A stretch of 32,000 bases of DNA from Opitutales bacterium (GCA_965219535.1 CBDCNV010000002.1:900001-932000), one strand, 5' to 3'. Shown: positions 3,847-27,699, counted from the stretch's first letter. Notes: a model not told the origin generated them from the letters alone. Made by a program: numbers and translations.

Positions 3847-3850
3847 TCAA

Positions 3851-11443: not shown

Positions 11444-12343
11444 TTAAACGATATTCAAATGCGTTACCAGGGTTTGAGCTGCTTCTTCTCTCTGTTCAAA
11501 ATGGATATCTGAATACAGTGTCCACGTCTCTCGGTGGGTGACGGTTTCACCGGGAGCGATCACGGATTTTGGAGCCACAGTTTCCAGTTCAATGAGGCGG
11601 GGATCGCAATAAACCTGACTGGAACTGCCACGGTCAAAATAGGGGACATCGGGATGATAAACGGCGTGTTTCACAAACAGTGTATCGTCGCGATGATACG
11701 CCAGCCAACTATCGGAATTTAGAAAACCGAATTTAAGCATCCCCTCCTGCATATTCGCTTCAACAAAAATAAATCGGTTACCCCAGTGTATATGTGGACT
11801 GGCAATGTCCGTAAAGGGCCACAATGCAATACTGCGATTAGGCCAGACCCCGGTAGCGTCAACATGTTCAGTTAGCTGCGGCATGAGAGCCACGCCACCC
11901 TCGGGCAGTTGTGTGATCGCCCAGGGAGCCGTCTCGATCGGCCAGATTCCCTCGTTTTTTAAACTGTGATCAACAACAACGGTTGGCCCATTGTCCGGTA
12001 GCGTGATCTGCATTGATTTTTGAATACCGGTTTCAGGTTCGATCGACTGAATGACTACCAGACCATTTTCAATTGCCTCAACTTCAACCGGTTGATTATC
12101 GGGCAGGTAAGTACGCTCTTCCACTTGAGGGGCATGCCACAAGCGATGTCCCCCATAAAGTTTCAACTTTTCATCCTTACCTGGACAGTCGAGTTCTAAA
12201 TCCGGTAATTCGGCGAGCAGGTTTTTGCCCTCCAAAAAGCTCAAACGAATAATGCGCGGTCCGACTGATTGCGTAACGAGCAATTCAATGGATTCATTCA
12301 TTAAACGGACACAGTCCAGATTGAGAAAGTGTGTAGTCTCCAT
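11444..12343 (-). CDS. Conserved protein, possibly galactose-mutarotase-like fold (aldose-1-epimerase/DUF-type)
   Basis: 299-aa ORF with ATG at 12343, in an operon-like run with downstream hydrolase genes. The GGHRLWHAPQ...YLPDNQPV motif resembles mutarotase-like domain proteins as I remember them. The gene is solid; the function assignment is weak. Confidence 0.45.
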   Translation of the reverse strand: METTHFLNLDCVRLMNESIELLVTQSVGPRIIRLSFLEGKNLLAELPDLELDCPGKDEKLKLYGGHRLWHAPQVEERTYLPDNQPVEVEAIENGLVVIQSIEPETGIQKSMQITLPDNGPTVVVDHSLKNEGIWPIETAPWAITQLPEGGVALMPQLTEHVDATGVWPNRSIALWPFTDIASPHIHWGNRFIFVEANMQEGMLKFGFLNSDSWLAYHRDDTLFVKHAVYHPDVPYFDRGSSSQVYCDPRLIELETVAPKSVIAPGETVTHRETWTLYSDIHFEQREEAAQTLVTHLNIV

Positions 12344-12533: not shown

Positions 12534-13322
12534 ATGCTCGATAAGGAAAAGATAGATTATTTTAACGAGAACGGATTTTTACACATTCCGCAGGTGTTTA
12601 CTGCGGAGGAAACGGATGAACTCGCGGATACGCTCGACCAACTGGTGGATGATTGGGCCAATACGACGCCCGGCTGGAGCGGTCCCTGGCGACGTGCCTA
12701 TATGGATGAGGAAACGGAGAAAAAGGCGAAGCTCACGGCCATGCATGACCTCCATCTCTATTCAGAGGCTTGGTGCCGGGCGGTGACGAACAGAAACCTT
12801 ATCCGTGCGATTTCACAGTTGATTGGTCCGAACGTTGAACTGCACCATACTACGATGCATATCAAGCCACCGGAGACCGGCCATCTCTTTCCCATGCACC
12901 AGGATCACCCTTTTTATGAGCATGATGATGGACGTTATGTCGATGTCCTTGTACACCTCGATGACACTAACGCGGAGAATGGAGAAATTCGATTTCTTGT
13001 CGGTTCTCACAAACAGGGCGCGCTAGTCCACATCCGTGAAACTGAAACCGGCGCATGCACACCACACCTGCCGACCGATGTATATAAACTTGAAGACTCT
13101 GTTCCAGTTCCAGCGAAACGCGGTGATGTCGTCTGTTTCAGCATTCACACTATTCATGGATCCTATCTCAATCGGACCGATAAGCCGCGGCGTTTAGTTC
13201 GCTTCGGTTATCGTGATCCTCACAATGTTCAAACCGCGGGCCAAAGCGTCGGTCGGCCTGGTCTTCTTGTCGCCGGCTACCGGCAACGTCGCGAGGGGGA
13301 AGAGTTGTTGAAGATGGTTTAG
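12534..13322 (+). CDS. Phytanoyl-CoA dioxygenase (PhyH)-family Fe(II)/2OG oxygenase
   Basis: 262 aa. N-terminal FNENGFLHIPQVF, iron ligands in MHQDHPFY (His-x-Asp) and a distal His in IHTIHGS. Confidence 0.85.
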   Translation: MLDKEKIDYFNENGFLHIPQVFTAEETDELADTLDQLVDDWANTTPGWSGPWRRAYMDEETEKKAKLTAMHDLHLYSEAWCRAVTNRNLIRAISQLIGPNVELHHTTMHIKPPETGHLFPMHQDHPFYEHDDGRYVDVLVHLDDTNAENGEIRFLVGSHKQGALVHIRETETGACTPHLPTDVYKLEDSVPVPAKRGDVVCFSIHTIHGSYLNRTDKPRRLVRFGYRDPHNVQTAGQSVGRPGLLVAGYRQRREGEELLKMV

Positions 13323-13408
13323 AGTTTAACCAAAATGCGGATCTTCATTACAGATTATGATTGTTAATTACATTCAGCATCTTATTTAAAAGTATAAAGA
13401 AGAATAAA

Positions 13409-14200
13409 ATGACACCAGAAGAGGCCAGTGAAAAGCGGGAACAAGTAATTCGGGATGGGTACTGCGTAGTCGACGATATTTTAACGGAAGATTTTCTCGA
13501 TGAACTGCGCGTAGAATCTGAGCGATTAATTGAAAATCATGAGCCGCCAGCCGATCACATCTACCAGGGTCAGCACGTGGGAGTACAAGGCAAAAATAAT
13601 GCGATTATTCAAAAGTTGCTAACCTGGGGCCCATCAGGTCTAGCGCTCGAAAAACTTGGGTTTGGCGATTTTACAAGCGTCGGTTCGATCATCATCCTGA
13701 CTAAAGACCCGAAAGCGCCGGCGCTCTATTGGCACCAGGATTGGATGAAATGGGAAGATCCGCTCAGTTGTTCACCCTGGCCGCAGATCATGTTTCTGAA
13801 TTATTATCTAAGTGATACTTCTCCTGAAAATGGCTGTTTAAAAGTGATCCCCGGCAGTCACCATCGGCGATTTGCATTGCATGATCAATTGGTACCAGCT
13901 CATGAACAGGGGGCTCGATTCATAGATGAAGATCATCCGGTAATGTTCAGTGATCATCCCGATGAGGTAAACGTGTGTGTTTCTGCGGGCTCCCTGGTAT
14001 TGGCGGATGCCCGCTTATTGCATTCGGCCGGAAAAAATTTTACCGACCAGCGTCGAACATTGATTCTAGCCTGGCACAGACGGGAGGCCATCACCGCGCC
14101 GGACTATTGGGATCGCGATATCCCCGAACCCCTTGCCAATCGGGATCCGGACAAGGAGTACCCCTCCTGCCGCATTCCCGGCGAGTATCTTAAATATTAA
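13409..14200 (+). CDS. Phytanoyl-CoA dioxygenase (PhyH)-family Fe(II)/2OG oxygenase, second divergent copy
   Basis: I trimmed the track ORF from its TTG at 13361 to the ATG at 13409 (MTPEEASEKREQVIRDGYCVVDD). WHQDW (His-x-Asp), IPGSHH and LLHSAGKN motifs are present. Confidence 0.8.
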   Translation: MTPEEASEKREQVIRDGYCVVDDILTEDFLDELRVESERLIENHEPPADHIYQGQHVGVQGKNNAIIQKLLTWGPSGLALEKLGFGDFTSVGSIIILTKDPKAPALYWHQDWMKWEDPLSCSPWPQIMFLNYYLSDTSPENGCLKVIPGSHHRRFALHDQLVPAHEQGARFIDEDHPVMFSDHPDEVNVCVSAGSLVLADARLLHSAGKNFTDQRRTLILAWHRREAITAPDYWDRDIPEPLANRDPDKEYPSCRIPGEYLKY

Positions 14201-14692: not shown

Positions 14693-14781
14693 ATTTAATT
14701 AATATTATATTTATTTCCTGTTGTTAAACAATAGCTTAAAAATAAATACAGATAAAAAGTAACAAAGCGACTTGCAGTAAT

Positions 14782-14814
14782 CTACAAACGTAGTTTAGTT
14801 ACCTACTATTGTAG
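14782..14814. promoter_or_regulatory. Two candidate BlaI/MecI-type operator dyads (CTAC-N4-GTAG x2)
   Basis: ctacaaacgtag (14782-14793) and ctactattgtag (14803-14814) have centres 21 bp apart and lie 23-55 nt upstream of the blaI-like ATG. The TAC-N4-GTA geometry equals the TACA/TGTA dyad known for BlaI/MecI/CopY repressors. Each site has one perfect TACA or TGTA half. Confidence 0.5.
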
Positions 14815-14836
14815 TCTTTTAGATATACAAACAGCT

Positions 14837-15217
14837 ATGAAAGAAAAAAAGAAAATCAAATTATCCCGCCTGGAAATGGAGGTCATGGAACCTTTATGGA
14901 AAATGGGTAACGCATCGATTCGCCAGATTCATGAAAGTTTGCCCGAAGAGAAACGCCCCGAGTTCACGACCGTGCAGACAATCATCTATCGTCTAGAAGA
15001 AAAAGGTGCAGTGACGCGGCTCCATAAAATTGGCAATGCCTACATTTTTAAAACCCAAATAACCCGCAAGTCAGCGATTGGAAACCTGGTCGATGATTTG
15101 CTCAGTCTTTTAGGTGGATCACCTAATCCGATGATGGCCCATCTCCTGGAGACGGGAAAAATTACATTAAAGGAATTAAAGCAGATGGAAACTTTCGTAA
15201 ATAATACCCAAAAATAG
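14837..15217 (+). CDS. blaI: BlaI/MecI/CopY-family winged-helix transcriptional repressor
   Basis: 126 aa. The N-terminal LSRLEMEVMEPLWKMGNASIRQIHESL...FTTVQTIIYRLEEKGAV is the typical Penicillinase_R domain. It sits 9 nt upstream of an M56 gene, the canonical pairing. Confidence 0.9.
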   Translation: MKEKKKIKLSRLEMEVMEPLWKMGNASIRQIHESLPEEKRPEFTTVQTIIYRLEEKGAVTRLHKIGNAYIFKTQITRKSAIGNLVDDLLSLLGGSPNPMMAHLLETGKITLKELKQMETFVNNTQK

Positions 15218-15226
15218 GACAAAACA

Positions 15227-17401
15227 ATGAAGCTATTCTCACTCATCGATGGACCGTCACTCACCTTCTGGGTTGATATGGGCAATCACCTTTGGCAATC
15301 CACACTGTTTGGTGTCTTCATTGTATTAATTATATTGTTATTAAAAAAGGCATCGGCAAACACACGCTATATCGTCGGATGGATTGGGCTTATAAAGTTT
15401 ATTCTTCCCTCTGCTTTTCTGTATCAGGCGGTTCAAAGTCTTCAGCTCTCATTTCTTTCTAAAGGGTTTTGGAATATGGAGGCGTTAATGCCGCTTAACC
15501 GACACCTTGCGGAGCCCCTGTTTCTCTTTAATAAGTCGGGTGCTTTATCTTTAGAACCCGTTTCTGTTGTCGGTGGATCTTCATCCTCGGGAATATTTCT
15601 TTTAAACATTCTAGGCTTTATTTGGCTGTCAGGAACCTTATTTCAATTTTTCAGGTGGCAATATCGGCTTATCAATTTGAAGAGAGAATTACTCAACCAT
15701 TCTCAAGCAGCGCCTGAATCACTGCATATTACACTGGATCAATTGAGAAAAAAATTTGGTCTCAGGAAAGAGGTAAACGCACTTCTCGTAGACAAAAAAG
15801 TTGAACCGGGTGTTCTTGGTATATTCAGCCCGCGAATTATTTTACCCACCTATCTTTTTAAAAATTTATCGGCAAGTGAGCTAGAGCCGATTCTTATCCA
15901 TGAACTGGCCCACGTTAAGCGCCGGGATAATTTATGGGGCTTTTTGCAGATGGTCTTATTCTGCTTCCTCTGGTTTAACCCCCTGATCTGGTGGTTGAAT
16001 CGTCGTTTGACCTGGGAGAGTGAAAGATCCTGTGACGAGGCAGTTCTCATGCAATCAAAAGATAAAAATAACTACGCGAAAGGTATAATTATGGTTTCAC
16101 ATTATTGTATCGGGTTAAAAATACCGGGCTTTTCAGGAATCAATGATGTCGGCCTGGAAAACAGGTTGGAGTCTATTATCAGTTTCAACGGAAAGAAATT
16201 GTCCAATCGTTTCACACATTGCGTTATCATCTTTACGGTATCCTTTTTCTTATTGCTCACGACTTCCGCGAGTGGGTTCTTGGCCCATATGGAAGCGGTA
16301 AGCACGCAAGGTGAAGAGCAATATGAAACCGAAATTACTTCTGTAGATAGTGATTCGAGTACGGAAGCTATTTACAATTATACTGGTGTGATTATCCCCG
16401 AGGACGCTGCGATTAAAGAAAGTATGGATGCCGGAGATGATTACAAAATAATATTAATGTCGGACGCAAAAGAAGAGCGTTTAAATACATTCGTTAATTA
16501 CGAAGAAGCATCCAAAGTTAAAGGCTATCCCGCGGAAGAATCGGTTTATCAGGAAAGAATAGAGAAAGGTGCACATCACACGGTTTCTAAAACAGAAACG
16601 AATCCCTTTCGCGCACAATCAGCGGTCTCTACGCTCAATAAGTTTTTCAGTCCGTTGCAAGTACCTCAAACCGTTGCCAATAAAGAAAATAGTCAATCCT
16701 ATCAAACTGTTGTCCGGTCAAACCGGGAGAACCAGAGTGAAAACGATAAAGAGTACTATTCGCAATTAGAGGTCCTTAACCAGGTAAAACCTGTATTTCC
16801 CGAGTCTGTTCTCCATTTAGGTATCACCGAGGGCTTTGCGGAAGTTGTTCTCATTGTCGATGAGAGGGGCGAGCAGCGAGACATGATTGTATCGGTTGCT
16901 TCCCATAAGCAATTTGGTTTAGCCTCAGTCGCAGCGATACAAAAATGGAATTTTATTCCTCTGCAGGTGGATGGAAAAGCGCAAACGAGTCGGGTTAAAG
17001 TTAACGTAGACTTTAAATATATCGGTGTCGGTCAAGCAAAGTATCCTAGTATTATAGAAGAAGCGGCACTGAGATTTGAAAGGAACGGTTTATTCGATAA
17101 TATCAGTAATCTTGGTCAATTAGACCATGAACCGCGATTGATTAAAAATGTAAGGCCCGTTTATCCTGAGAATTTGAAAAAATCTGAGAAGAGTGGCATG
17201 GTGGTGGTAGAATTTTTCATTGATCCCGCAGGTAACGTGAAAGCACCGGGAATTAAAATGGCAACTGATGATGAATTTGCTATTTCCGCCTTGGCAGCGA
17301 TTAAAGAATGGAAATTCGAACCCCCACTCAAACGGGGCAAGCCAACCTACGCCCGTGTCTATCAGCGGTTTGCTTATAACCATATTCCGGTGAACTTTTA
17401 A
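15227..17401 (+). CDS. BlaR1-like M56 zinc metalloprotease fused to two TonB C-terminal-like domains
   Basis: 724 aa. N-terminal TM helices with the HLWQSTLF motif. HEXXH motif HELAH at 15899-15913, followed by a further TM segment. Low-complexity linker, then two TonB_C-like units (about 16750-17020 with KPVFPES...IQKWNFIPL, and about 17120-17398 with RPVYPEN...GMVVVEFFIDPAGNV...IKEWKFEPP). No penicillin-binding (SxxK) sensor domain is evident. Confidence 0.85.
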   Translation: MKLFSLIDGPSLTFWVDMGNHLWQSTLFGVFIVLIILLLKKASANTRYIVGWIGLIKFILPSAFLYQAVQSLQLSFLSKGFWNMEALMPLNRHLAEPLFLFNKSGALSLEPVSVVGGSSSSGIFLLNILGFIWLSGTLFQFFRWQYRLINLKRELLNHSQAAPESLHITLDQLRKKFGLRKEVNALLVDKKVEPGVLGIFSPRIILPTYLFKNLSASELEPILIHELAHVKRRDNLWGFLQMVLFCFLWFNPLIWWLNRRLTWESERSCDEAVLMQSKDKNNYAKGIIMVSHYCIGLKIPGFSGINDVGLENRLESIISFNGKKLSNRFTHCVIIFTVSFFLLLTTSASGFLAHMEAVSTQGEEQYETEITSVDSDSSTEAIYNYTGVIIPEDAAIKESMDAGDDYKIILMSDAKEERLNTFVNYEEASKVKGYPAEESVYQERIEKGAHHTVSKTETNPFRAQSAVSTLNKFFSPLQVPQTVANKENSQSYQTVVRSNRENQSENDKEYYSQLEVLNQVKPVFPESVLHLGITEGFAEVVLIVDERGEQRDMIVSVASHKQFGLASVAAIQKWNFIPLQVDGKAQTSRVKVNVDFKYIGVGQAKYPSIIEEAALRFERNGLFDNISNLGQLDHEPRLIKNVRPVYPENLKKSEKSGMVVVEFFIDPAGNVKAPGIKMATDDEFAISALAAIKEWKFEPPLKRGKPTYARVYQRFAYNHIPVNF

Positions 17402-17527
17402 AAACGATCGGTAGCTTAAAGCTTAATTGAGGGATTTGGTGGTGAGAATGACCATGTTGTTTAAAATCTTGACCAATGAGAGCAACTTCAAATCCGACAA
17501 CACCCGCAGCTCACCCAAACTGTCAAT

Positions 17528-17553
17528 GCGATCTTCTTTAACGAGGATGGAGA
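17528..17553. repeat. Conserved 26-nt intergenic block, copy A (gcgatcttctttaacgaggatggaga)
   Basis: 24 of 26 nt identical to 18455..18480. Ends 56 nt upstream of the next start codon. Confidence 0.85.
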
Positions 17554-17609
17554 TAAAATAAATGTCTCAGTAGAAAATAAAACCATAAAGTGATAATATA
17601 CATATACAG

Positions 17610-18368
17610 ATGATGAAGTGTTTCACATTTATTTTTGCCGTTTTTCTGTTTACACCTGCATTCGGAGTAGAAGCTGATCAATTAGCAGATTTGGAAACAA
17701 AAGCAAAAAATAGAGATGCCGATGCACGATTTAAACTGGGAAAAAAATACTATCATGGCCTGGGAGTAGAGCAAAATTATAAGAAAGCCGCGAGATGGAT
17801 TCGCAAGGCAGCCAGGCGAGGGCACCCCGGCGCTCAACGCTACCTTGGGGAGATCCATGAAAAGGGCCTGGTATATAGAGTAAGTTATAGAAGAGCCGAA
17901 AAATGGTATCTCAAAGCGGCTGAGCAGGGAAATACTCAAGCCCAATTTCTCCTTGGTAACATTTATGAAAGGGGAGTTAATGAAGAGGATGTTGTTAATT
18001 ATGTTCATTATTCTGACTATGAACAGGGTCGTTCTCGAAGAGTCTTAGATTCTGGATACATGAACTCCAATCTTAGGAAAGGGTTCTATCTTGATAAAGA
18101 CTATGCCGAAGCGGTGAAATGGTATCAAAAAGCTGCGCTACAAGGACACACTCAAGCTCAAATTAAGCTTGGAGTATTGTGTGCTAATGGCAAGGGCACG
18201 GCGCAAAATTTACATATGGCCTATACATGGTTTAAAATCGCTAGTTCAGAGAGCGAAGGTGATTTGACAACTCAATTAATCGAAACTCTCGAGGGTACCA
18301 TGACCCCAGAGCAAATTAAAGAAGCCGATCATAAAGCTAAATATTGGCTGGCTAACTATAAAAAATAG
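17610..18368 (+). CDS. Secreted Sel1-like repeat (SLR/TPR-like) protein, paralog A
   Basis: Signal peptide MMKCFTFIFAVFLFTPAFG. Repeated A..WY.KAA.QG...AQ..LG..Y..G.GV motifs. Clear paralog of 19439..20311. Confidence 0.9.
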   Translation: MMKCFTFIFAVFLFTPAFGVEADQLADLETKAKNRDADARFKLGKKYYHGLGVEQNYKKAARWIRKAARRGHPGAQRYLGEIHEKGLVYRVSYRRAEKWYLKAAEQGNTQAQFLLGNIYERGVNEEDVVNYVHYSDYEQGRSRRVLDSGYMNSNLRKGFYLDKDYAEAVKWYQKAALQGHTQAQIKLGVLCANGKGTAQNLHMAYTWFKIASSESEGDLTTQLIETLEGTMTPEQIKEADHKAKYWLANYKK

Positions 18369-18392
18369 TAAACGTACCAAGGGTATAGCCCA

Positions 18393-18423
18393 CCTGCCGT
18401 CCATAGCCTCGTGCGACGGATGG
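18393..18423. repeat. Dispersed repeat motif W, second copy
   Basis: cctgccgtccatagcctcgtgcgacggatgg matches 14477..14506. It contains ccgtc/gacgg and gtccat/atggac pairings. Confidence 0.75.
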
Positions 18424-18454
18424 ACATCTACCAAATCAAAAATTACATATCACC

Positions 18455-18480
18455 GCGATCTTCGTCAACGAGGATGGAGA
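18455..18480. repeat. Conserved 26-nt intergenic block, copy B (gcgatcttcgtcaacgaggatggaga)
   Basis: 24 of 26 nt identical to 17528..17553. Ends 52 nt upstream of the next start codon. Confidence 0.85.
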
Positions 18481-18532
18481 GTTGATCACCATTACGACTG
18501 AGAAAATAACAAAAAGGTAGCAAAGTTATTTA

Positions 18533-19381
18533 ATGGTAAATGATTTTTTAAAAATAGAATTATTGGTCATATGGGTGTTAGCATCATTACCGGCGCTACT
18601 CACAGCTGAACCTCAGGATCAACAGGAATTTACCAATTGGGAGGGCGATTCTAATAATGAAGAATTACCCCAAACAGATGTCGTGCCACGGACCTATAGG
18701 GAGAGACAGATAGAGAGTGAAAAAGAGTACTATTCTAATTTAGAGGTCCTTAATAAGGTAAAACCGGTTTTTCCCGAGACGGTTCTCAATTTGGGTATCA
18801 CTAAAGGATTTGCGAATGTTGTTCTCATTGTCGATGAGACCGGCCAGCAGCGAGATTTGGTAGTAGCTTCCGCTACCCATTCGGCATTTGGTGTCGCAGC
18901 AATCAAGGCAGTACAAAAATGGGATTTTATTCCACTTGAAGTGGATGGTAAGCCGCAAACGTGTCGGGTAAAAGTAGAAGTGGACTATGAACATAGGGGG
19001 GGTGGGTCATCCTTTCATCCTATCAGCATTAATAAAGCACGACAGAGTTTTGAAAGAGAAATTCCCCTTTTTGATCATTATACCGTTATCCTCGGACAGT
19101 TAGACCGTAAGCCAAAATTAATTAATGATGTAAGTCCCGTTTATCCCGAAAGTCTGAGAAAAGCAAAGAAGAGTGGCCTTGTAGTAATAGATTTCTTCAT
19201 TGATCCAACGGGAAACGTTAGAGCACCGGGGATAAAAATGGCAACGAACAAGGAATTTGCCATTACCGCCTTAGTTGCAGTCAAGGAATGGAAATTCGAA
19301 CCACCAATGAAAGAGGGCAAACCGACACACGCTCGTGTGAATCAACGATTTTCATTTAGCAATATATCCGTGGACTATTAA
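18533..19381 (+). CDS. Secreted protein with two TonB_C-like domains (free paralog of the BlaR1-like C-terminus)
   Basis: Signal-peptide-like N-terminus (LLVIWVLASLPALLTAEP). From about aa 50 it aligns colinearly with BlaR1-like residues about 495-724 (for example KEYYSNLEVLNKVKPVFPETVLNLGITKGFANVVLIVDE versus KEYYSQLEVLNQVKPVFPESVLHLGITEGFAEVVLIVDE). Confidence 0.85.
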   Translation: MVNDFLKIELLVIWVLASLPALLTAEPQDQQEFTNWEGDSNNEELPQTDVVPRTYRERQIESEKEYYSNLEVLNKVKPVFPETVLNLGITKGFANVVLIVDETGQQRDLVVASATHSAFGVAAIKAVQKWDFIPLEVDGKPQTCRVKVEVDYEHRGGGSSFHPISINKARQSFEREIPLFDHYTVILGQLDRKPKLINDVSPVYPESLRKAKKSGLVVIDFFIDPTGNVRAPGIKMATNKEFAITALVAVKEWKFEPPMKEGKPTHARVNQRFSFSNISVDY

Positions 19382-19438
19382 TTCCATCTAATCAACTGAT
19401 AGGGTTTATAACGAAATTGAAAGAGAGGAAATTTAAAG

Positions 19439-20311
19439 ATGAAAAATACAAGACATATACAAATAAATAGGTTTTCACTTTTTATTGTATTCTTATGTCT
19501 AGCTAATTTGGTCTTCGGTGAAGATATTGTAGAGCTAGCAGAATTAGAAGTAGTAGCTGACAAGGGAGACCTTATTGCACAATTGAAATTGGGAGAAATG
19601 TATTATTACGGGCAAGGTGTAGAGCAGGATTATGAAAAGGCAATGAAATGGTTACGCCAAGCAGCCAAGCAGGGGAACCCTCGTGCTCAATATTACCTGG
19701 GGGAGAACCATTTAAAAGGTTTGGTATACGGAAAAAATTTTAGAAGAGCAGTAAAATGGTATCGCAAGGCAGTTAATCAGGGAGAAGCAGATGCCCAATT
19801 TGCCCTTGGCACCTTATATGAAACGGGAATAGTTGAAGAGAAGGATAGTCTTGCTACTAATCAAGGGATACCTGTCAGAGTGCCAAGAGAATTTCTGGAC
19901 CCCGAATACTCATATGAAGCGGAAAAGCGAATTAATACTGGCTACAATTATGTAAAGACACCTTTAGCAGATCCTTATGGTGATCAGGGAACGATTAAAA
20001 CAAATTACAGGAAAGGGTTCCACGTTGATCAGGACTATGCCGAAGCGGTGAAATTGTATCAGAAAGCGGCCCTTCAAGGTCACACCCAAGCACAAATCAA
20101 TCTGGGAGTACTGTGTGCTAAAGGTCTGGGCACTGAGAAAAATTTAACTATGGCCTATATGTGGTTTACGGTCGCTAATTCAGACCCAGAAAAAGCAAAT
20201 TATATTACAACTCAATTAATCAATAATCTCAAAGCAGGCATGACCACAGAGCAGATAAATGAAGGTGATGGCAAGGCTGAGTATTGGCTGGCTAATTATA
20301 AAAAAGAGTAA
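19439..20311 (+). CDS. Secreted Sel1-like repeat protein, paralog B
   Basis: Hydrophobic N-terminus; a GAGAGG/AGGAA Shine-Dalgarno-like sequence upstream. SLR motifs throughout. The C-terminus (AEYWLANYKKE) mirrors paralog A (AKYWLANYKK). Confidence 0.9.
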   Translation: MKNTRHIQINRFSLFIVFLCLANLVFGEDIVELAELEVVADKGDLIAQLKLGEMYYYGQGVEQDYEKAMKWLRQAAKQGNPRAQYYLGENHLKGLVYGKNFRRAVKWYRKAVNQGEADAQFALGTLYETGIVEEKDSLATNQGIPVRVPREFLDPEYSYEAEKRINTGYNYVKTPLADPYGDQGTIKTNYRKGFHVDQDYAEAVKLYQKAALQGHTQAQINLGVLCAKGLGTEKNLTMAYMWFTVANSDPEKANYITTQLINNLKAGMTTEQINEGDGKAEYWLANYKKE

Positions 20312-20334
20312 GCTCAATAAATAAGTTCAAAGCA

Positions 20335-21780
20335 ATGTATGGCATGCATATATCATTTTTGAAGAGGATAGTAATAGCATCCTTAGTGGTGACCTTTAAT
20401 TCCTTTTTATCGGCTGAGGATGGGACATTTGAAGAAATGGTCAGAAAAGCTGGAGCCGGGCATACGCAGTCCCAATACCGCTTAGGTGTTGCCTTTAAAG
20501 AGGGTGAAGAAATCGGACAAGACAACTATCTAGCGATTAAATGGTTTAGAAAAGCCGCGGAGAAAAGTCATCCGGACGCACAATACGAATTGGCAATTAT
20601 GCAATTGAGCGGCCAGGCAGCACACGTAAGTTTGAAGGAGGCATTAACAGGGTTACTGGCCGCGGCCAATAAGGGACATGTCGGGTCCCAATACCGACTG
20701 GGTTTCACTTATGCAAATGATCCCAAAGTTGAAAGAAATGAAATTGAAGCCGCGAAGTGGTATGAGCTTGCCGCAAGGCAAGGCCATGCAAAGGCCCAAT
20801 ATGAATTGGGCCAGGCCTACCAAAGAGGTAAAGGGGTGCGACGAAGTAATGACCTTGCGGCAAAATACTATCTTATGGCGGCGGAGCAGGGCCATTTAGA
20901 TTCTCACTGTGAACTGGGAAAATTATATACTTATGGTATAAATTTTAAACAGGATTATGAAGAAGCATTAAAATGTTATCAGCTAGCGGCGATTAAAGGG
21001 CATACCGAGTCCATGTATCGTTTAGCTTGGGCCTATGGCAATGGGTGGGGAATTGAAAAGGACCACAAAGAAGCGTTGGTGTGGTATCATCGGGCTGCAG
21101 ATAATGGTCATGCGATGTCACAATATAATATCGGGTGGGCATACGAGACGGGACAGGGGGTAGCTAAAGATTACGCGAAAGCAGTTACCTGGTATGAACG
21201 TTCGGTCAATTTGGATTTAGACCTGGCGCAAACTAAATTGGGATCGATTTACTATTACGGGCGCGGTGAAGTGGAGAAAGATTATGGAAAAGCCGGGAAA
21301 TGGTATTTACAGGCCGCGGAGCAGGGGGATGTGGAAGCACAATATTATTTGGGATTCATGTATTATCAAGGTCAGGGTTTTGCAAAGGATTACCAGCATG
21401 CGCATAAGTGGTTTGAATTAGCAGCCAATCAAAACCATGCGGGCGCCCAATATAACCTGGGTTACATGTATGAAATAGGATTGGTCTTTAAGTATAGAAA
21501 TTACGCGGAGGCGCTTAAGTGGTATAATAAAGCAGCGATGCAGGGTAATGTCGACGCGCAAGTAAAATTGGGCTACATGTATTTCGAAGGGCACGGTGTA
21601 AGCAAAGATTACGTGCAAGCTTATGCCTGGGCATATTTAGCCAATGCTCAATCCGAAAATACTTATCTTATTAAACGTCTTTCCAGGCGGATGGACGCCA
21701 AAGAAATAAACGCGGGGATAGTTAGGGCAGATCTATTGCAGAAACATTTAGCTGGATTGAAAAATTCAAATGCCAACTGA
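20335..21780 (+). CDS. Secreted Sel1-like repeat protein, long form (about 11 SLR units)
   Basis: 481 aa with a signal-like N-terminus (IVIASLVVTFNSFLSAEDG). Regular ~36-aa repeats of the form A.KWY.LAA.QGH..AQY.LG..Y..G.GV.KD. Confidence 0.9.
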   Translation: MYGMHISFLKRIVIASLVVTFNSFLSAEDGTFEEMVRKAGAGHTQSQYRLGVAFKEGEEIGQDNYLAIKWFRKAAEKSHPDAQYELAIMQLSGQAAHVSLKEALTGLLAAANKGHVGSQYRLGFTYANDPKVERNEIEAAKWYELAARQGHAKAQYELGQAYQRGKGVRRSNDLAAKYYLMAAEQGHLDSHCELGKLYTYGINFKQDYEEALKCYQLAAIKGHTESMYRLAWAYGNGWGIEKDHKEALVWYHRAADNGHAMSQYNIGWAYETGQGVAKDYAKAVTWYERSVNLDLDLAQTKLGSIYYYGRGEVEKDYGKAGKWYLQAAEQGDVEAQYYLGFMYYQGQGFAKDYQHAHKWFELAANQNHAGAQYNLGYMYEIGLVFKYRNYAEALKWYNKAAMQGNVDAQVKLGYMYFEGHGVSKDYVQAYAWAYLANAQSENTYLIKRLSRRMDAKEINAGIVRADLLQKHLAGLKNSNAN

Positions 21781-21815
21781 AAATAATAGAGAGGTGTTGT
21801 TAAACCAATTAACTG

Positions 21816-22169
21816 ATGAATCGCACTAAGACTAAGAATTCAAAAAGAAGCATCTGCTTTATATGTACGATTATCTTCGCGCTTCTCTTGTCCACTTTAA
21901 GTGAGGGGAAAAACGTTAACAGAAAAACTAATCTTTCAAAGGATGATAACGTCAATCCAGAGAAGGTTGGTCATGATGTAGAATGTGGTTCGGTTACCAA
22001 ATTATATGAGAACGACAGCGCAGCCGACGTTAAATTGAGAATCTATGTTACAGACAGATGTCAGGATCGAGAATCAATCGTTAAAATATTCGACGATAGT
22101 AATGAACTGTGGAGTGACCCCCAAAAATCGTATCATTTACAGAGAGAGGTTATCGGGATAAACAGATAA
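21816..22169 (+). CDS. Small secreted hypothetical protein, 3' end replaced by IS-derived sequence
   Basis: N-terminal signal/anchor (ICFICTIIFALLLSTLSEG). From 22103 onward the reading frame lies inside the IS left inverted repeat, so the last 22 codons (NELWSD...GINR) are not native. Confidence 0.5.
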   Translation: MNRTKTKNSKRSICFICTIIFALLLSTLSEGKNVNRKTNLSKDDNVNPEKVGHDVECGSVTKLYENDSAADVKLRIYVTDRCQDRESIVKIFDDSNELWSDPQKSYHLQREVIGINR

Positions 22170-22174
22170 CCTCA

Positions 22175-22468
22175 ATGAAAAGAAAAAGATACACAACAGA
22201 ACAGATTATAACAATATTGCGGCAAGCCGATACCGGTAAAACGGTACAGGAAATCTGCCGTGGAAACAACCTGAGCGAACAGACTTTCTATCGCTGGCGT
22301 AAAAAATATGGCAATTTAGAACTTGCCGATGCGAAGCGATTTAAAGAGCTGGAAAAAGAATTCACGAGCGCAAGCGAGAAGGCCTGACATACCGAGCTGA
22401 AGAAGCTGCTCGCAGATCAAATGCTCAAGAATCAGGTAATGGAGGAAACGCTGTCAAAAAAATGGTGA
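22175..22468 (+). pseudogene. IS3 orfA (HTH protein) interrupted by an in-frame TGA
   Basis: MKRKRYTTEQIITILRQADTGKTVQEICRGNNLSEQTFYRWRKKYG is a typical IS3 OrfA helix-turn-helix. An in-frame TGA at 22385-22387 is followed in the same frame by the expected leucine-zipper tail HTELKKLLADQMLKNQVMEETLSKKW, ending at 22466-22468. Confidence 0.75.
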
Positions 22469-23413
22469 GCCCAAAGCAGAAGAAACGAGTAGTAAAAGCT
22501 GCGGCTGAGAAAGGGTTGTGCTCGTTGCGGAGGGCTTGTGCTTATCTCAGCCTGAGTTGGTCAACGTTCAGTTACCGGCCCAAACAGGCCAGTGAGAAAG
22601 CTCAGCGGTTGGTCGAGCGGATTGTGAGCTTGTCCTGGAAACATCCCCGCTACGGTTACCGGCGCATCCGTGCCTTGCTGGTAAAGGAAGGCTGGACAAC
22701 AAGCAGGAAGTTTGTCCAGGCGGTACGACGTTCAGAAGGGCTGCAGGTAAAGCCCCCGAAAAAGGGCAGACACCGTCAAGGAGTCTCTACGGGGTCACCT
22801 ACTAAAGCAAAGGGTCGCAATCACGTTTGGTCCTGGGACTTTGTCCATGATCGTACAGACAACGGCGGTCCATTAAAGATGATGACTCTAATCGATGTAC
22901 CGAGGAGCTGAAAGCGACGACACTGAATATACGCGTAAATGCCTGGATATCCGGGTCGCTCGTCAACTCACCTCAACCGATGTCCTCTCTGTGCTTAGCG
23001 AGGCCATTGAAGAGGAGGGACCTCCCAGCTATATCCGTAGTGACAACGGCAGTGAGTTCATTGCTCATCAAGTGCAGCAGTGGTTGTCCGGTAATAACAT
23101 AAAGGCGATCTATATCGATCCGGGCAGTCCCTGGCAAAACGGTTTCATCGAGTCGTTTCACAACCGCTTACGCGATGAGTGTTTGAACCGTGAAGTGTTG
23201 CTCAGCGTGGCTGAAGCGCAAGTGGTAATCGAACAATGGCGTCAGACCTATAACCATGAACATCCCCACAGTCGTTTAGGCTTCAAAAGCCCACAAGAGT
23301 TTGTCAGATTCCTTTCCGATCTTGGCCGCGTTCGGGCTACGCCCTCACTTCGCCAAGATCTCTCATATACATCAATCCTAAAACCATTAACACCCGGTAA
23401 CTCTCTCACTTAA
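22462..23413 (+). pseudogene. IS3 orfB (DDE transposase) with a frame disruption
   Basis: It is in the -1 frame relative to orfA. The reading frame breaks between ...GGPLKMMTLID (ends 22896) and EYTRKCLDIRVARQL (from 22925). In intact relatives, as I remember them, these are contiguous (LIDEYTRECL), so a 28-nt segment (22897-22924) intervenes. The downstream part has SDNGSEF and the C-terminal HPHSRLG motifs. Confidence 0.75.
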
Positions 23414-23594
23414 ATTGGTACGAAAAACGGGGTCCGATCATAAATCATTCATAACATAAAAAAAAATTGAATGGATGAAAATGCATACAGTGATAAATTA
23501 CCAAGGACTAAATAGACTGCGGTAAATTTAATGGCCGCATCCCTTGCAGACAATACCCCCAATTCATAATGGGGTTGTCGTTACTTCTTAATAC

Positions 23595-23613
23595 ACAGCT
23601 GAGATTCAGCTGT
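23595..23613 (-). terminator. Perfect 8-bp hairpin (acagctga-gat-tcagctgt) downstream of the minus-strand gene array
   Basis: Read directly from the sequence. It lies about 40 nt past the stop of the last gene of the array (23650). There is no U-tract, so intrinsic-terminator function is uncertain. Confidence 0.3.
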
Positions 23614-23649
23614 ATCCTGTATTAGCTGTAGATTCTCATTTCGAATTCA

Positions 23650-24252
23650 TCATGTTTGCGTAAGCGGTGAAGTCAAATTGAAAGAAATTTTATTAGCGAT
23701 AGAGTAAAGAGCATACAAAGAGATGTGCTTATGGGGGGGAAGAACGTATAATTGCAGATCATAAAAGACGCCATTTTTCTGCCGAGCATTCTGAATAACT
23801 TTTTCAAATTTCATACCCAGCTTTTCCAGGACACGGGATGAGGCCAGATTCTCCAGCATGCAGGTTCCTTCGATGCGCCTGAGTTGTCCCTTATCAAAGC
23901 CGTAGCTAAGCACTTCCCTCACCGCTTCCGTGGCATAACCCTGGCTCCAGAAATCCCTCGAAATACCAAATGCAATTTCAGCTTTCCTGTGGTCTTGGTT
24001 TAAGGAATGGAAAAAACAATAACCGATAACTTGTTCAGATTCTTTTAATACGATTGCCCAGGCGACAATATCTGGAGATTTTAAAAATGAAATAAACTTC
24101 CCGGTGTCTTCAATCGATCGGTGTGTATTCCAAAAGGTGAATTTTGTTACCTGTCGATCAGATGCAAATTCAAAAATATCGACTGCGTCGTTGCTCTTTA
24201 CTTCCCGCAATAACAGTCGAGACGTTTGAAGTGAGGGAATGTCGGTTAGCAT
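23650..24252 (-). CDS. GNAT-family N-acetyltransferase (RimJ/RimL-like)
   Basis: I trimmed the track ORF's TTG start (24264) to the ATG at 24252 (MLTDIPSLQTSRLLLREV, the typical RimJ-type N-terminus). WSQGYATEAVREVLSYGF is the acetyl-CoA-binding motif region. Confidence 0.85.
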   Translation of the reverse strand: MLTDIPSLQTSRLLLREVKSNDAVDIFEFASDRQVTKFTFWNTHRSIEDTGKFISFLKSPDIVAWAIVLKESEQVIGYCFFHSLNQDHRKAEIAFGISRDFWSQGYATEAVREVLSYGFDKGQLRRIEGTCMLENLASSRVLEKLGMKFEKVIQNARQKNGVFYDLQLYVLPPHKHISLYALYSIANKISFNLTSPLTQT

Positions 24253-24291
24253 GTTAAAACTCAATGGGACAAAACAAATGGCAGGATAACA

Positions 24292-24819
24292 CTAATGTGT
24301 TGATTGCTCTAATTCTGATTTCGTGAACAGTGCCACAAGATTTAGTCCTTCTTTTTCTAGATTTTCCCTGCCTCCAGATTCGCGATCTATAACACAAAGG
24401 ACAGTCTCGATGACTGCGCCTTTCTTACGTAGCTCTGTTGCGGATAGTATAATTTGGCCACCTGATGTAACGACATCTTCAACGATAACAATATATTTCC
24501 CGTCTACCTCACCACCTTCGGCTAAATTACAGGTCCCATAATCCTTTGCCTCTTTTCTGACAAACAATGTAGGAATCTTTGAAATTTGCGAAAGCATTGT
24601 AGAGATGGGTATTCCACCCATTTCCAGCCCCGCGAGCACTTCAGTCCCCTCTGGAATCATCGGTGACAGTGATTTGGCAATTGCTTTTAGAATTTCGGGC
24701 TGAGCTTCAAATAAATATTTATCAAAATATTCATTGCTGATCGCGCCGGAGCGCAAACGGAATTCTCCTTTAATATGAGAGATTTCATAGATTGCTTTAG
24801 CTAACTCACTTTTATTCAT
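24292..24819 (-). CDS. pyrE: Orotate phosphoribosyltransferase-like type I PRTase (short PyrE type)
   Basis: 175 aa. FRLRSGAISNEYFDKY (the PyrE N-terminal motif), GGIPIST, FVRKEAKDYG and the PRPP-binding motif IVIVEDVVTSGG. Whether this is the housekeeping copy is not known from this window. Confidence 0.7.
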   Translation of the reverse strand: MNKSELAKAIYEISHIKGEFRLRSGAISNEYFDKYLFEAQPEILKAIAKSLSPMIPEGTEVLAGLEMGGIPISTMLSQISKIPTLFVRKEAKDYGTCNLAEGGEVDGKYIVIVEDVVTSGGQIILSATELRKKGAVIETVLCVIDRESGGRENLEKEGLNLVALFTKSELEQSTH

Positions 24820-24893
24820 TTAAAACTGAAAGATTATATTAGTTCGAGTTGATGTCAGCTTGCATTTTAATGAACACCATCGTGCGACGCCAT

Positions 24894-25412
24894 TCAGGTT
24901 TCAAAAGTCTGTGTTATCAACTCATCTATTAGGCTCTCATTAAAGTTCCCGTTCGTAAATTCGCCGATAACTTTTCTCCAGAAATTAACGGCGGGTATGT
25001 TTTCAGGGATTTGCCGTATTCGCCACGAACCTTGAAACTTTTTAAAGAGCTTGTGCACTATCCGTCTCCCGACTCCTAATCTTTGGAATTTTCCCAGCAC
25101 AAAGAATTCACCTACATCGTATAGCGGATTACCCTCTTCACTTAGCTCCTGAAGGAGGACAAAGCCCGCGATCTTGTCGTCAACCGTAATCATAAAGGGG
25201 TGACCTTTTCGATTATCCGACCATCTGAAATCAGCGCGCGTGTCGGGATGATTGGACTGCCAGTACTCTCGCGAGTCGTCGCATCCACCGTAGATTCCCT
25301 GAGGGTTACAGTCCCAACCGGTCATTTTTGACATATCATAAACATAATAACTTATGAGATTCAAAACGACCGGCAGATCTTTATCTGTAGCTTTAATTAA
25401 TTCTACTTTCAT
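24894..25412 (-). CDS. GNAT-family acetyltransferase
   Basis: 172 aa. Motif A FQRLGVGRRIVHKLF, followed by the ...PAVNFWRKV tail typical of a small GNAT subfamily. Confidence 0.8.
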   Translation of the reverse strand: MKVELIKATDKDLPVVLNLISYYVYDMSKMTGWDCNPQGIYGGCDDSREYWQSNHPDTRADFRWSDNRKGHPFMITVDDKIAGFVLLQELSEEGNPLYDVGEFFVLGKFQRLGVGRRIVHKLFKKFQGSWRIRQIPENIPAVNFWRKVIGEFTNGNFNESLIDELITQTFET

Positions 25413-25446
25413 TTTAAATTATTATGACATTGTGGTAGCGTGTGCA

Positions 25447-25956
25447 TCAACACCCATTGATAATATTCCTGATAGTATTGACAGCCTTATCTTCATAAGT
25501 GTTGTCATTCGTGCAAAGTTTAAGAACGAAAGAACGATTCATGGCTTCAGTAGTTGCTTTCTCGTGGATCTCTTTTGCTTCAGCTTCTGTTACAGGAAAT
25601 CTCTTTTCGCGTCTGGATCTCAATCGTTCAATAAGGATCTCCTCTGGTGCGTTCAACCATACCCGGAGTACTTTTATCCCAGTCGATTCCAGGTTGTCAG
25701 CTAATTGCCAATCACTTTTCCACGCGCCAGTTGCTTCGACAGACACCGTATCAGATGTTTCCAATTGTAAGATAACTCTGTCTAGAACAGGTTCGAGCCA
25801 ACCCAATTCGGGATCAGTTTTTATACCCTTAGCAGTCCACATGAGAACGAGCTCATCTGGATCAATATGATCTATACTTAATTCTTCTTTCAGTCTGCGA
25901 GCTAACTTGGTCTTACCAACTGCCTTTGGTCCATATAGAACGACGACGGTTTGCAT
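25447..25956 (-). CDS. P-loop NTPase, small-molecule/nucleotide kinase-like
   Basis: 169 aa. Walker A motif GPKAVGKT near the N-terminus, in a short kinase-sized fold. A GAGGT Shine-Dalgarno-like sequence lies about 10 nt upstream of the ATG at 25956. Confidence 0.7.
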   Translation of the reverse strand: MQTVVVLYGPKAVGKTKLARRLKEELSIDHIDPDELVLMWTAKGIKTDPELGWLEPVLDRVILQLETSDTVSVEATGAWKSDWQLADNLESTGIKVLRVWLNAPEEILIERLRSRREKRFPVTEAEAKEIHEKATTEAMNRSFVLKLCTNDNTYEDKAVNTIRNIINGC

Positions 25957-25996
25957 TATTGTATGTACCTCATGATTTAAAGCGATAAAGCTTAAC

Positions 25997-26602
25997 CTAT
26001 TTAGGATCTCCTATTGGAGGGAGTTTTTGTGTAAGTGTTACGATCGAGTTCCATAAGTCAGGTGTAAAGGGCAATTCCAATTGTTTACATATCTCCCGCC
26101 ATCGATCAATCTGGTCCATGATATGCAGAGGTACATATCCAAGCTTGAGGTAGGTCTTGATTGCGGCTAACCGAAAATCCTCGGTATATAAATGGATGAA
26201 ACGAAAACCTTCATCGATAAACCGTGCGGTAACAGCAGCACTAAGTGCTAACCCTAATCTCTTTCCGGAATGTGCAGGATCACTAGCGAGCCAACCCAGT
26301 TCACCGCCAGAAGAATAAGCTTCAGAACGCAAAGCCATACAACTCGCTACCATACGACCGCTCGCCTGATGGCAGACCAAAAACCAGCCTTCTGACAAAA
26401 TCCGTGGTATCCATGGTTTGAGCCGTTGTTCATCCCAATCATTCCACCCTGCCATATCCATCAATTCAAAAAAATTGTTACTGTCATCCGGATGGTATGT
26501 TCGCAATAAATAGCCGGGAGTAAAATGAACAGAAGGCGGAGTGAGCAATAGTTGCTCCGGCCATGCCATCTGAAGTTGATCAGCATAAAACTGTGTGCTC
26601 AT
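25997..26602 (-). CDS. GNAT-family acetyltransferase
   Basis: 201 aa. Motif A region HSGKRLGLALSAAV and the C-terminal AIKTYLKLGY. Confidence 0.8.
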   Translation of the reverse strand: MSTQFYADQLQMAWPEQLLLTPPSVHFTPGYLLRTYHPDDSNNFFELMDMAGWNDWDEQRLKPWIPRILSEGWFLVCHQASGRMVASCMALRSEAYSSGGELGWLASDPAHSGKRLGLALSAAVTARFIDEGFRFIHLYTEDFRLAAIKTYLKLGYVPLHIMDQIDRWREICKQLELPFTPDLWNSIVTLTQKLPPIGDPK

Positions 26603-26608
26603 TTATCA

Positions 26609-27181: not shown

Positions 27182-27186
27182 TTTTC

Positions 27187-27675: not shown

Positions 27676-27699
27676 TTATACTCCTGATTAATTGTCGCC

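Follow-up and report, generated by a model that had tools for sequence, protein, structure and literature searches.

Organization of the cassette

The 32,000-nt window analyzed here (Opitutales bacterium, GCA_965219535.1 CBDCNV010000002.1:900001-932000) carries at positions 14837-22169 a cassette of seven open reading frames (ORFs), all on the plus strand and separated by spacers of 9, 208, 164, 57, 23 and 35 nt (Table 1). The cassette opens with a BlaI-like repressor (g1) and a BlaR1-like M56 protease (g2), followed by a cargo in the order of a four-repeat Sel1-like repeat (SLR) protein (SLR4, g3), a protein of two TonB_C domains (g4), a second SLR4 protein (g5), a long Sel1 protein (SLR11, g6) and a small protein (g7). 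The coordinates, spacers and common strand reproduce those of the original prediction, an earlier reading of this DNA as a BlaI/BlaR1 switch wired to a battery of secreted Sel1-repeat proteins; the profile search against Pfam also returned each of its domain assignments (Penicillinase_R, Peptidase_M56, TonB_C and Sel1). The observation itself is therefore confirmed, and the interpretation built on it is upheld in part.

A signal-peptide-like hydrophobic N-terminal stretch passes the hydropathy threshold in g3, g4, g5 and g7. Of the three SLR proteins held to bear signal peptides, g3 and g5 do so by this measure, whereas the N-terminus of g6 (MYGMHISFLKRIVIASLVVTFNSFLSA) lies below the threshold and is signal-peptide-like by eye only. 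Comparison with the orthologous locus L001 (94% identical) gave ratios of nonsynonymous to synonymous substitution rates (dN/dS) of 0.14-0.57 for g2-g7, which mark them as maintained genes. Judged by these rates, the cassette genes are real and kept by purifying selection. We propose that the cassette belongs to a multi-copy family of atypical cassettes for regulated proteolysis of the BlaI/BlaR1 type and that it operates as an operon under derepression, a model that we hold to be evenly poised between right and wrong.

Table 1. Positions of the cassette genes, promoter elements, gene remnants and the bordering insertion element in the window
Feature	Position	Strand	Description
-35-like hexamer TTGCAG	14772..14777	+	direct reading; adjoins operator dyad 1 on its upstream side
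Candidate BlaI operator dyad 1, CTACAAACGTAG	14782..14793		TAC-N4-GTA core
Candidate BlaI operator dyad 2, CTACTATTGTAG	14803..14814		21 nt (two helical turns) past dyad 1; 23 nt ahead of the blaI ATG
g1	14837-15217	+	BlaI/MecI/CopY-family winged-helix repressor, 126 residues; Penicillinase_R 7.8e-24
g2	15227-17401	+	BlaR1-like M56 membrane zinc protease, 724 residues; Peptidase_M56 1.6e-34; two TonB_C 8.2e-23
Accessory block (X646 scar, g3, X646 scar, g4, g5)	17402..20329	+	delimited by BLASTN against L092-L094
X646 pseudogene scar 1	17460..17590	+	last ~44 codons, frameshift at ~17504, no start codon
g3	17610-18368	+	four-repeat Sel1 protein, 252 residues, predicted secreted; Sel1 8e-33
X646 pseudogene scar 2	18431..18511	+	last ~27 codons, no start codon; tblastn E 4e-4
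g4	18533-19381	+	double-TonB_C protein, 282 residues, predicted secreted; two TonB_C 1.7e-24
g5	19439-20311	+	four-repeat Sel1 protein, 290 residues, predicted secreted; g3 paralog
g6 (SLR11)	20335-21780	+	Sel1 protein of 10-11 repeats, 481 residues; Sel1 3.1e-92
g7	21816-22169	+	truncated copy of a 148-residue lineage-restricted protein; no Pfam family
IS3-family element	22110..23717	+	orfA 22175-22387 (HTH_Tnp_1), broken orfB 22462-22911 and 22895-23413; HTH_Tnp_1, HTH_21, rve, rve_3

The repressor and the sensor-protease

The repressor g1 matches the Penicillinase_R model (PF03965) with 84.7 bits (cutoff 22.6) over positions 1-113 of the 115 in the model. It stays below the cutoff in the NCBIfam BlaI models and reaches 58 bits with CopY_TcrY (TIGR02698), for which the cutoff is 122; the CopY-type C-terminal metal motif CxCxxxxCxC is absent from g1, which contains no cysteine at all.

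The sensor-protease g2 consists of a four-segment N-terminal M56 part (Peptidase_M56, 119.9 bits over residues 25-290), a last transmembrane helix at ~333-351, a disordered acidic linker of ~150 residues (355-512) and two TonB_C domains at about 515-598 and 630-720. In the AlphaFold model the membrane/protease part and the TonB_C domains are confident, compared to a pLDDT of about 26 for the linker. Across 14 aligned M56+TonB_C proteins, H225, E226 and H229 of the HELAH motif (225-229) do not vary, and neither do acidic residues further downstream. Structural similarity search using Foldseek placed the N-terminal half on Staphylococcus aureus BlaR1 (8exq, E 2.4e-8; 8exr_A, TMt 0.64) and the C-terminal domain on the TonB C-terminal domain (6i97_D, TMt 0.90, root mean square deviation 1.3). 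The TonB model TIGR01352 is matched with 60 bits (cutoff 27); of the TonB_C motifs, both PxYP and W(K/N)F.P are kept.

By contrast to a penicillin sensor, g2 has no PF00905 or beta-lactamase match in Pfam, and thus no transpeptidase or penicillin-binding domain; NCBIfam blaR1_generic gives 94.5 bits (cutoff 400), and its match is limited to residues 31-346. In addition, no beta-lactamase or penicillin-binding protein (PBP) gene was found in the window. The claims of a BlaI/BlaR1-type pair and of a sensor that does not bind penicillin both stand: the repressor match, the intact HELAH motif and the two folds, together with the paired TonB_C domains at the C-terminus, mark g1 and g2, at the level of sequence and predicted structure, as a genuine BlaI-like repressor paired with a BlaR1-like zinc protease of the M56 family.

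The conservation of the TonB_C part also fits a different role, in which g2 and g4 would be TonB paralogs that energize or plug outer-membrane transport, with the M56 part as a membrane anchor lacking a signaling function; the annotation of g2 as 'TonB family protein' would then be apt. The TonB_C motifs and the close superposition on the TonB C-terminal domain, which in that structure is in complex with FoxA, fit such a role, as do the long periplasm-spanning linker and the two M56-TonB_C proteins counted among 11 TonB homologs of Bacteroides thetaiotaomicron (PMC10350073). However, g2 begins with a four-helix M56 protease part whose HEXXH motif is intact, in place of the single TonB helix that couples to ExbBD, it lies 9 nt behind a BlaI gene that has operators and is in close translational coupling with it, and no exbB or exbD lies in the window, so that we regard a transport role as very improbable.

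Candidate operator dyads at the blaI promoter

Two candidate operator dyads lie just ahead of blaI (Table 1). Their TAC-N4-GTA (TACA..TGTA) core has the geometry of the known bla, mec and cop boxes. The pattern CTAC-N4-GTAG occurs twice in the 32 kb, both times upstream of blaI, compared to an expectation of 0.14, and none of 100 shuffles reached two. The position of the adjoining -35-like hexamer is kept in the sister loci (TTGCAG, TTGCAA, TTGAAA and TTGCGA); no convincing -10 element was found for the blaI promoter, and a simple sigma-70 scan did not call TTGCAG.

Dyads sit at the matching position in the orthologous loci L001 (CTACAAATGTAG) and L092, and in L009 (CTACATATGTAG), a locus of an Opitutales metagenome-assembled genome (MAG). 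In every paralogous cassette this promoter position is occupied by a dyad variant specific to that cassette, as would be expected for autoregulated, insulated circuits. In the sister cassette L008, which has a TPR sensor, the same CTAC-N4-GTAG dyads occur also at 12197, 12220 and 13909 (12197-12231 and 13909-13920 of L008), ~100 nt ahead of two cargo genes encoding 202 and 428 residues. This placement indicates direct control of the cargo by BlaI in L008 and, since the dyads precede cargo genes there, BlaI control of cargo probably exists somewhere in the cassette family.

Paralogous cassettes share the Sel1-g7 module

Among species representatives, the nearest is an Opitutales MAG whose BlaR1 is 57% identical to g2, and exact or near-exact copies were found on long-read ENA contigs of 2.3-5.05 Mb. 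BlaI-M56 cassettes are numerous in this lineage: one contig of 5.05 Mb harbors five regulator-bearing cassettes, namely L003, L005, L089, L090 and one with an identical copy of the window BlaI. A supposed identity of BlaI across divergent cassettes was considered and rejected: the identical BlaI of this 5.05-Mb genome belongs to a different cassette, which is orthologous, and the BlaI proteins of divergent cassettes are 60-64% identical.

The paralogous cassettes differ in their sensors. In L003 and L005 (BlaR1 53% identical to g2), BlaI and a BlaR1 with two TonB_C domains are followed by X646 (646 residues, no Pfam match), SLR11 and a g7 homolog. L007 and L096 (BlaR1 41% identical to g2) contain BlaI, BlaR1, an X646-like protein of 481-482 residues, SLR12 and SLR11 (and g7). 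L008 and L091, about 50% identical to g2 over the M56 half, have BlaI, an M56-TPR fusion, and then Ig_7/X646-like and TPR proteins. In L089 and L090, 38-41% identical over the M56 half, BlaI and an M56 protein without a recognizable sensor are followed at once by a free TPR protein. X646 is a lineage-specific family of predicted secreted proteins of 481-744 residues, some members of which have an Ig_7 domain. In L009, an IS3 transposase lies directly after BlaR1, followed by an Ig_7 fragment. In L096, a TonB-dependent receptor gene (Plug and barrel, 1-1227) is located directly upstream of blaI on the same strand; it is absent from L007.

SLR11, with or without g7, follows BlaI-BlaR1(TonB_C) in 4/4 paralogous cassette types (window/L001/L092, L003, L005 and L007/L096). 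Conversely, members of the g7 family sit directly after SLR11 and behind BlaI-BlaR1 wherever the upstream region is visible. This reverse-context test used the non-repetitive g7 family, as generic multi-repeat Sel1 proteins crowded the g6 homolog search, in which even its 80-96% relatives were missing. About 160 additional M56 loci, taken from GTDB genomes and JGI metagenomes and largely from Acidobacteriota, include 7 that encode M56+TonB_C in other phyla; no Sel1 array lies next to any of the 160, and 0/7 carry Sel1/g7 cargo. The JGI metagenome scan, in which the best match had 32% identity and the lineage was absent, contributed 80 unrelated M56 loci as negative controls. The adjacency of SLR genes to such sensors thus holds within the clade and fails for M56+TonB_C proteins in general, and the Sel1 linkage appears confined, as far as found, to one lineage of uncultured Opitutales (Verrucomicrobiota).

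The two halves of the cassettes differ greatly in divergence. SLR11 proteins of different cassettes share 80-85% of their residues, compared to 41-53% for their BlaR1 proteins. The synonymous divergence (dS) between cassette types is saturated for BlaI/BlaR1 (2.1 to infinite), against 0.59-0.65 for SLR11 and 0.37 for g7. Because the cargo dS is 0.37-0.65 behind regulators with saturated values, the cargo half is estimated to be much younger than the regulator half. On these estimates the cassettes are recombination mosaics, in which the Sel1-g7 module has been repeatedly exchanged or homogenized behind anciently diverged sensors.

A strain-variable block between the sensor and SLR11

The block containing g3, g4 and g5 is present in the window, L001 and L002, and is replaced by an unrelated 144-nt spacer in L092-L094. 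These three loci are orthologs of the window, with the same PhyH-PhyH pair upstream, a BlaI of 126 residues and a BlaR1 of 724 residues, after which the 144 nt lead directly into SLR11 and g7. As their BLASTN homology to the window is restricted to 14730-17401 and 20330-22109, g3-g4-g5 is a strain-variable block, and the conserved unit, as read from this alignment, is BlaI, the BlaR1-like M56 protein with two TonB_C domains, SLR11 (g6) and g7. Therefore, of the SLR battery said to fill the effector position entirely, g6 (with g7) is retained as core, whereas g3-g4-g5 are accessory and missing in orthologs.

The two long spacers hold remnants of X646 genes (Table 1). Scar 1 was matched by tblastn with the X646 proteins of L003, L005, L007 and L008 at E 1.7e-6 to 3e-3. 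Both spacers share a 31-nt repeat because both hold X646 3' ends. This repeat had been considered as a shared regulatory element or a small ORF, which was rejected, as it is the X646 3' end, intact in sister loci. The 208- and 164-nt spacers are thus most simply read as gene scars rather than regulatory regions. The C-terminal ~278 residues of X646 are ~85% identical across cassettes and close with a TonB-box-like alternating tail that ends in …EEITVTMEEITVE.

The g4 gene has a composite structure. Residues 1-~39, comprising the signal peptide and PQDQQ, derive from the X646 family: residues 3-34 of L007 X646 match window 18548-18643, the 5' part of g4, with 56% (E 2e-6). Residues 40-282 share 60.5% amino acid identity with g2 484-724, in line with the proposal that g4 is a free secreted copy of the double TonB_C module of the sensor, and 58-61% with the BlaR1 C-terminal halves of three cassette types. 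With a dN/dS of 0.20 and intact 282-residue copies in several genomes (on contigs of at least 4 sizes), g4 is an old and selected chimera of an X646 signal peptide and a BlaR1 sensor half. The neighboring g3 and g5 are 49.8% identical, and the duplicated unit consists of the BlaR1 C-terminal half plus a four-repeat Sel1 gene, ~1.95 kb in length, with offsets of about 1975 and 1937 nt.

A 232-residue ORF adjoining an insertion sequence (IS) in L089 (7009-7707) combines three Sel1 repeats with one TonB_C domain; it lacks a signal peptide and may be N-terminally truncated. An origin of this ORF as a recent g3/g4 deletion chimera was rejected, since it is only 30-43% identical to the window genes.

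These arrangements bear on which side of the circuit the helical-repeat proteins stand. The Sel1 proteins, and the TPR proteins in paralogs, could take part in sensing, binding to the TonB_C sensor in the periplasm as co-receptors or inhibitors, with an output that is mainly autoregulation plus other genes such as X646 or g7. TPR repeats are fused as the extracytoplasmic domain in close M56 paralogs (P0007, P0008 and P0009; L008 and L091), a free TPR protein directly follows the sensor-less M56 paralogs (L089 and L090), the L089 ORF is a natural, if diverged, fusion of Sel1 and TonB_C, and the TonB_C pair was duplicated together with a four-repeat Sel1 gene. A precedent is offered by the Sel1 protein ExoR, which in the periplasm keeps the ExoS sensor switched off for as long as ExoR is not degraded. 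The casting of the SLR proteins as effectors accordingly needs revision, as the M56-TPR and Sel1-TonB_C fusions make a place on the sensing side as likely as one on the effector side. On the other hand, the orthologous loci work without g3-g5, the similarity to ExoR is that of generic Sel1 proteins (44-72 bits against a cutoff of 450), and the same proteins could serve as both output and feedback, which is compatible with the derepression model. Taken as a separate account, we consider a pure co-sensor role unlikely, though a serious contender.

The core cargo and its truncation by an IS3 element

The Sel1 Pfam scores are 112 bits for g3 (4 repeats), 123 bits for g5 (4 repeats) and 300 bits for g6 (10 repeats), and the dN/dS of g6 against L001 is 0.14. 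The PDB relatives of the Sel1 proteins are 6ok3 (4e-85), EsiB (4bwr, 1e-79) and 8sxq, and g6 matches HcpC (1ouv) at 9.4e-23. The Helicobacter proteins HcpA/B/C are Sel1-repeat proteins reported to have weak beta-lactamase or penicillin-binding activity. A genuine beta-lactam response, in which the Sel1 proteins act like these and fill the blaZ position functionally, would agree with the HcpC match and with the location of the Sel1 proteins in the bla-type effector slot. However, that match is far weaker than those to the generic Sel1 proteins 6ok3 and 4bwr, and the cysteine pair per repeat typical of Hcp proteins is absent: g6 has only two cysteines, and g3 and g5 have no paired cysteines in their repeats. 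Moreover, the sensor has no transpeptidase-like domain, and beta-lactam resistance is not under the control of those atypical BlaIR systems that have been tested to date (bioRxiv 10.64898/2026.08.03.742534; PMC13492132). Such a response is hardly to be expected here.

The full-length g7 family has 148 residues, with an N-terminal hydrophobic helix and a beta-sandwich with four cysteines, and forms 11 clusters among 5.8e9 proteins, all from the same Opitutales lineage. Fold searches returned generic beta-sandwich matches only (GOLD domain and CPE C-terminal domain, TM 0.35-0.64), and we draw no functional conclusion because these matches are generic. In the window, the first 98 codons of g7 (to 22109) are authentic, and 50 codons with two of the four conserved cysteines are lost. 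The predicted small secreted protein is present with a signal-peptide-like N-terminus, but as a truncated copy, since homology to the 148-residue orthologs stops at 22109; insertion of the IS3 element is the evident cause of the truncation. No terminal inverted repeats of this element were found, and its boundaries are approximate for that reason. Compared to L092, ~4.7 kb are lost at the IS3 site, including genes for an S9 peptidase, a HAD hydrolase and a 2-phosphosulfolactate phosphatase-like protein; synteny returns at window 23718, corresponding to L092 14001.

A proposed model of regulated proteolysis across the envelope

In the derepression model, BlaI (g1) would repress the blaI promoter and thereby keep the system autorepressed, and the tethered TonB_C pair of g2 would read a cue at the outer envelope. 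TonB_C is a beta-strand-capturing domain, as established for TonB with the TonB boxes of its receptors. The most likely cue would thus be a TonB-box-like beta-strand captured by strand addition. Capture would activate the cytoplasmic protease and lead to inactivation of BlaI, and derepression would yield one long read-through transcript, blaI-blaR1-(g3-g4-g5)-g6-g7. The exported Sel1 proteins would then be the output, adaptors feeding back on the sensor, or both, and g4, as an untethered copy of the sensor, would serve as a decoy or buffer by binding the ligand in competition with BlaR1. The co-directional genes, the lack of a terminator-like site in any plus-strand intergenic spacer of the cassette, and the origin of the long spacers as gene scars count in favor of the model.

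Several points weigh against it. No operator-like dyad precedes g3, g4, g5, g6 or g7; because BlaI-type dyads occur at the blaI promoter only, control of the Sel1 genes by BlaI requires, on the operator map, read-through from that promoter, and the gaps of 144-208 nt after blaR1 could hide an independent promoter. The dipeptide Asn-Phe, the cleavage site in S. aureus BlaI, is not conserved in g1, as judged from an alignment made by eye. The window contains no TonB-dependent receptor or exbBD gene, with MotA_ExbB and ExbD absent among the window ORFs scanned. In addition, the high similarity of cargo genes from different cassettes could be explained by neutral gene conversion, the region being IS-rich, without any selection for coupling.

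Some of these points would also follow if the genes were adjacent without a regulatory link, with g6-g7 (and g3-g5) transcribed from separate promoters and brought behind BlaI-BlaR1 incidentally, through duplication and IS-mediated recombination of entire segments of a plastic genome region. The missing operators ahead of the Sel1 genes agree with this, as do the IS3 and IS1595 elements that border or interrupt the cassettes in nearly every locus, the heavy rearrangement evident from the gene scars, the chimeric gene and a 2.9-kb indel, and the absence of an M56-SLR association outside the lineage. Nevertheless, the genes stay linked and in the same order even where the regulators of the cassette types have diverged to saturated dS, no g7 copy was seen in another setting, g5, g6 and g7 are held close by spacers of 23 and 35 nt, and the sister cassette L008 has BlaI dyads ahead of cargo genes. 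We therefore rate mere adjacency as rather improbable.

The derepression model can be extended to a wider reading, which is more speculative and, in our judgment, improbable, namely that the TonB_C pair is a trans-envelope reader of a TonB-box-like beta-strand at the outer membrane that triggers BlaI proteolysis, with Sel1/TPR co-sensors, g4 as decoy and an array of cassettes feeding one secreted response. The strand might be displayed by a ligand-loaded TonB-dependent receptor or by an exported protein of the cassette itself; the Sel1/TPR proteins would act as periplasmic adaptors or co-sensors and g4 as a soluble decoy. Several cassettes per genome, with operator variants of their own and a shared, recently exchanged Sel1-g7 output, would then constitute a multi-input array for different envelope cues. 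The secreted response might concern interaction with a eukaryotic host, a role that is conceivable because ankyrin, WD40, SET and TIR genes are nearby. If true, this reading would explain for the first time how the second-largest class of BlaR-like sensors works.

The surrounding region

Just upstream of the cassette are two tandem paralogs of the PhyH (phytanoyl-CoA dioxygenase) family (window 12534-14200). In L001, a WD40 gene of 988 residues sits between the two PhyH genes; it is absent from the window. Window 8807-9008, within a repeated segment (8429-9008), is 85% identical to L001 9209-9419, upstream of blaI, and window 14440-14519 matches L001 3556-3635 in inverted orientation with 81%; these repeated intergenic segments may be a small dispersed repeat. 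On the minus strand, window 23650-29523 carries a run of small GNAT acetyltransferase, AAA_33/kinase, phosphoribosyltransferase and APH-type phosphotransferase genes, and by gene content resembles a detoxification or antibiotic-modification cluster. A pseudopilin-like cluster at window 2820-5206 consists of two proteins with a prepilin-type N-terminal methylation motif and then a DUF7305 protein; just upstream, window 2001-3000 has an unusually low GC content of 0.35.

The flanks of L005, L007, L089 and L090 are IS-rich islands with ThsB-TIR, SocA_Panacea, ankyrin, NHL and restriction-enzyme genes, which suggests that the cassettes reside in variable genomic islands. Scans with the PADLOC defence models, Rfam and for tRNAs found nothing relevant.

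Comparison with known systems

The cassette shares with the canonical BlaI-BlaR1 and MecI-MecR1 systems of S. aureus and Bacillus licheniformis the winged-helix Penicillinase_R repressor, the TAC-N4-GTA dyads in an autoregulated promoter, and an M56 protease with HEXXH between transmembrane helices and an extracytoplasmic C-terminal sensor. The sensor domain differs greatly: two TonB_C domains on a disordered linker are found here, compared to the class-D beta-lactamase-like/transpeptidase sensor of BlaR1/MecR1. Moreover, blaI precedes blaR1, the cassette has neither a beta-lactamase nor a PBP gene, Sel1-repeat and orphan proteins form the cargo, and no cargo operator lies in the window. By domain content, the pair belongs to the BlaI and M56 families but is not canonical BlaR1/MecR1 in its sensor domain.

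Two further systems resemble parts of the cassette. In ExoR-ExoS/ChvI of Sinorhizobium and Agrobacterium, a secreted Sel1-repeat protein works in the periplasm with a membrane sensor. This offers a model for how g3, g5 and g6 could modulate the sensor, with the difference that ExoS is a histidine kinase and not a protease. In FecA-FecR-FecI, an inner-membrane protein extends through the periplasm and reads the state of an outer-membrane TonB-dependent receptor, and regulated proteolysis frees a transcription factor. The likeness is in concept only, as an anti-sigma/sigma pair there stands against M56/BlaI here and no receptor gene is linked in the window, L096 being the only locus with one directly upstream of blaI.

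Closer in composition are the atypical BlaIR systems, including BlaIR of Mycobacterium tuberculosis and M. abscessus, PvmSR of Pseudomonas aeruginosa, CenIR of Clostridioides difficile and PetR/PetP of Synechocystis, which likewise pair a BlaI-like repressor with an M56 protease and respond to non-beta-lactam signals (PMC13492132; bioRxiv 10.64898/2026.08.03.742534; bioRxiv 10.1101/2020.07.31.226407). Their regulons comprise metabolism, virulence, envelope or copper-switch genes. However, their sensors have little or no extracytoplasmic domain, and none has TonB_C or adjacent Sel1 cargo.

In a 2026 survey of ~15,000 M56 proteins, M56+TonB_C ranks second among 254 architectures, ~6% of the BlaR-like M56 proteins carry a transpeptidase (penicillin-sensor) domain, and in 96% a BlaI homolog is no more than 5 genes away, mostly on the upstream side (PMC13492132). 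The same order of M56 and then TonB_C (PF03544), with blaI 9 nt upstream of g2, places the pair in this class, which has been described as functionally uncharacterised (PMC10350073; PMC13492132) and to which TonB1/TonB10 of B. thetaiotaomicron also correspond in domain order. Compared to other M56-TonB_C proteins, the TonB_C domain is duplicated here, a free, predicted secreted copy (g4) is present, and Sel1/g7 proteins form the cargo. Our literature search found no paper combining Sel1 with BlaR1, or Opitutales with Sel1. The view that the architecture has no characterised function accords with this result for the combination with Sel1 cargo; M56+TonB_C itself has already been recognised as very common and as uncharacterised (PMC13492132; PMC10350073).

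The organism is uncultured and the association does not extend beyond its clade, which limits the weight of the finding. Within that clade, the lineage provides an informative natural experiment, with paralogous cassettes per genome that bear different sensors (two TonB_C domains, TPR or none), paralog-specific operators, a recently exchanged cargo of SLR11 and a four-cysteine beta-sandwich protein, a copy of the sensor domain that stands free, and natural variation between strains in whether they have g3-g5. Altogether, the comparison by domain and neighborhood identifies the cassette as a new, clade-restricted variant of the known M56+TonB_C class of atypical BlaIR systems.

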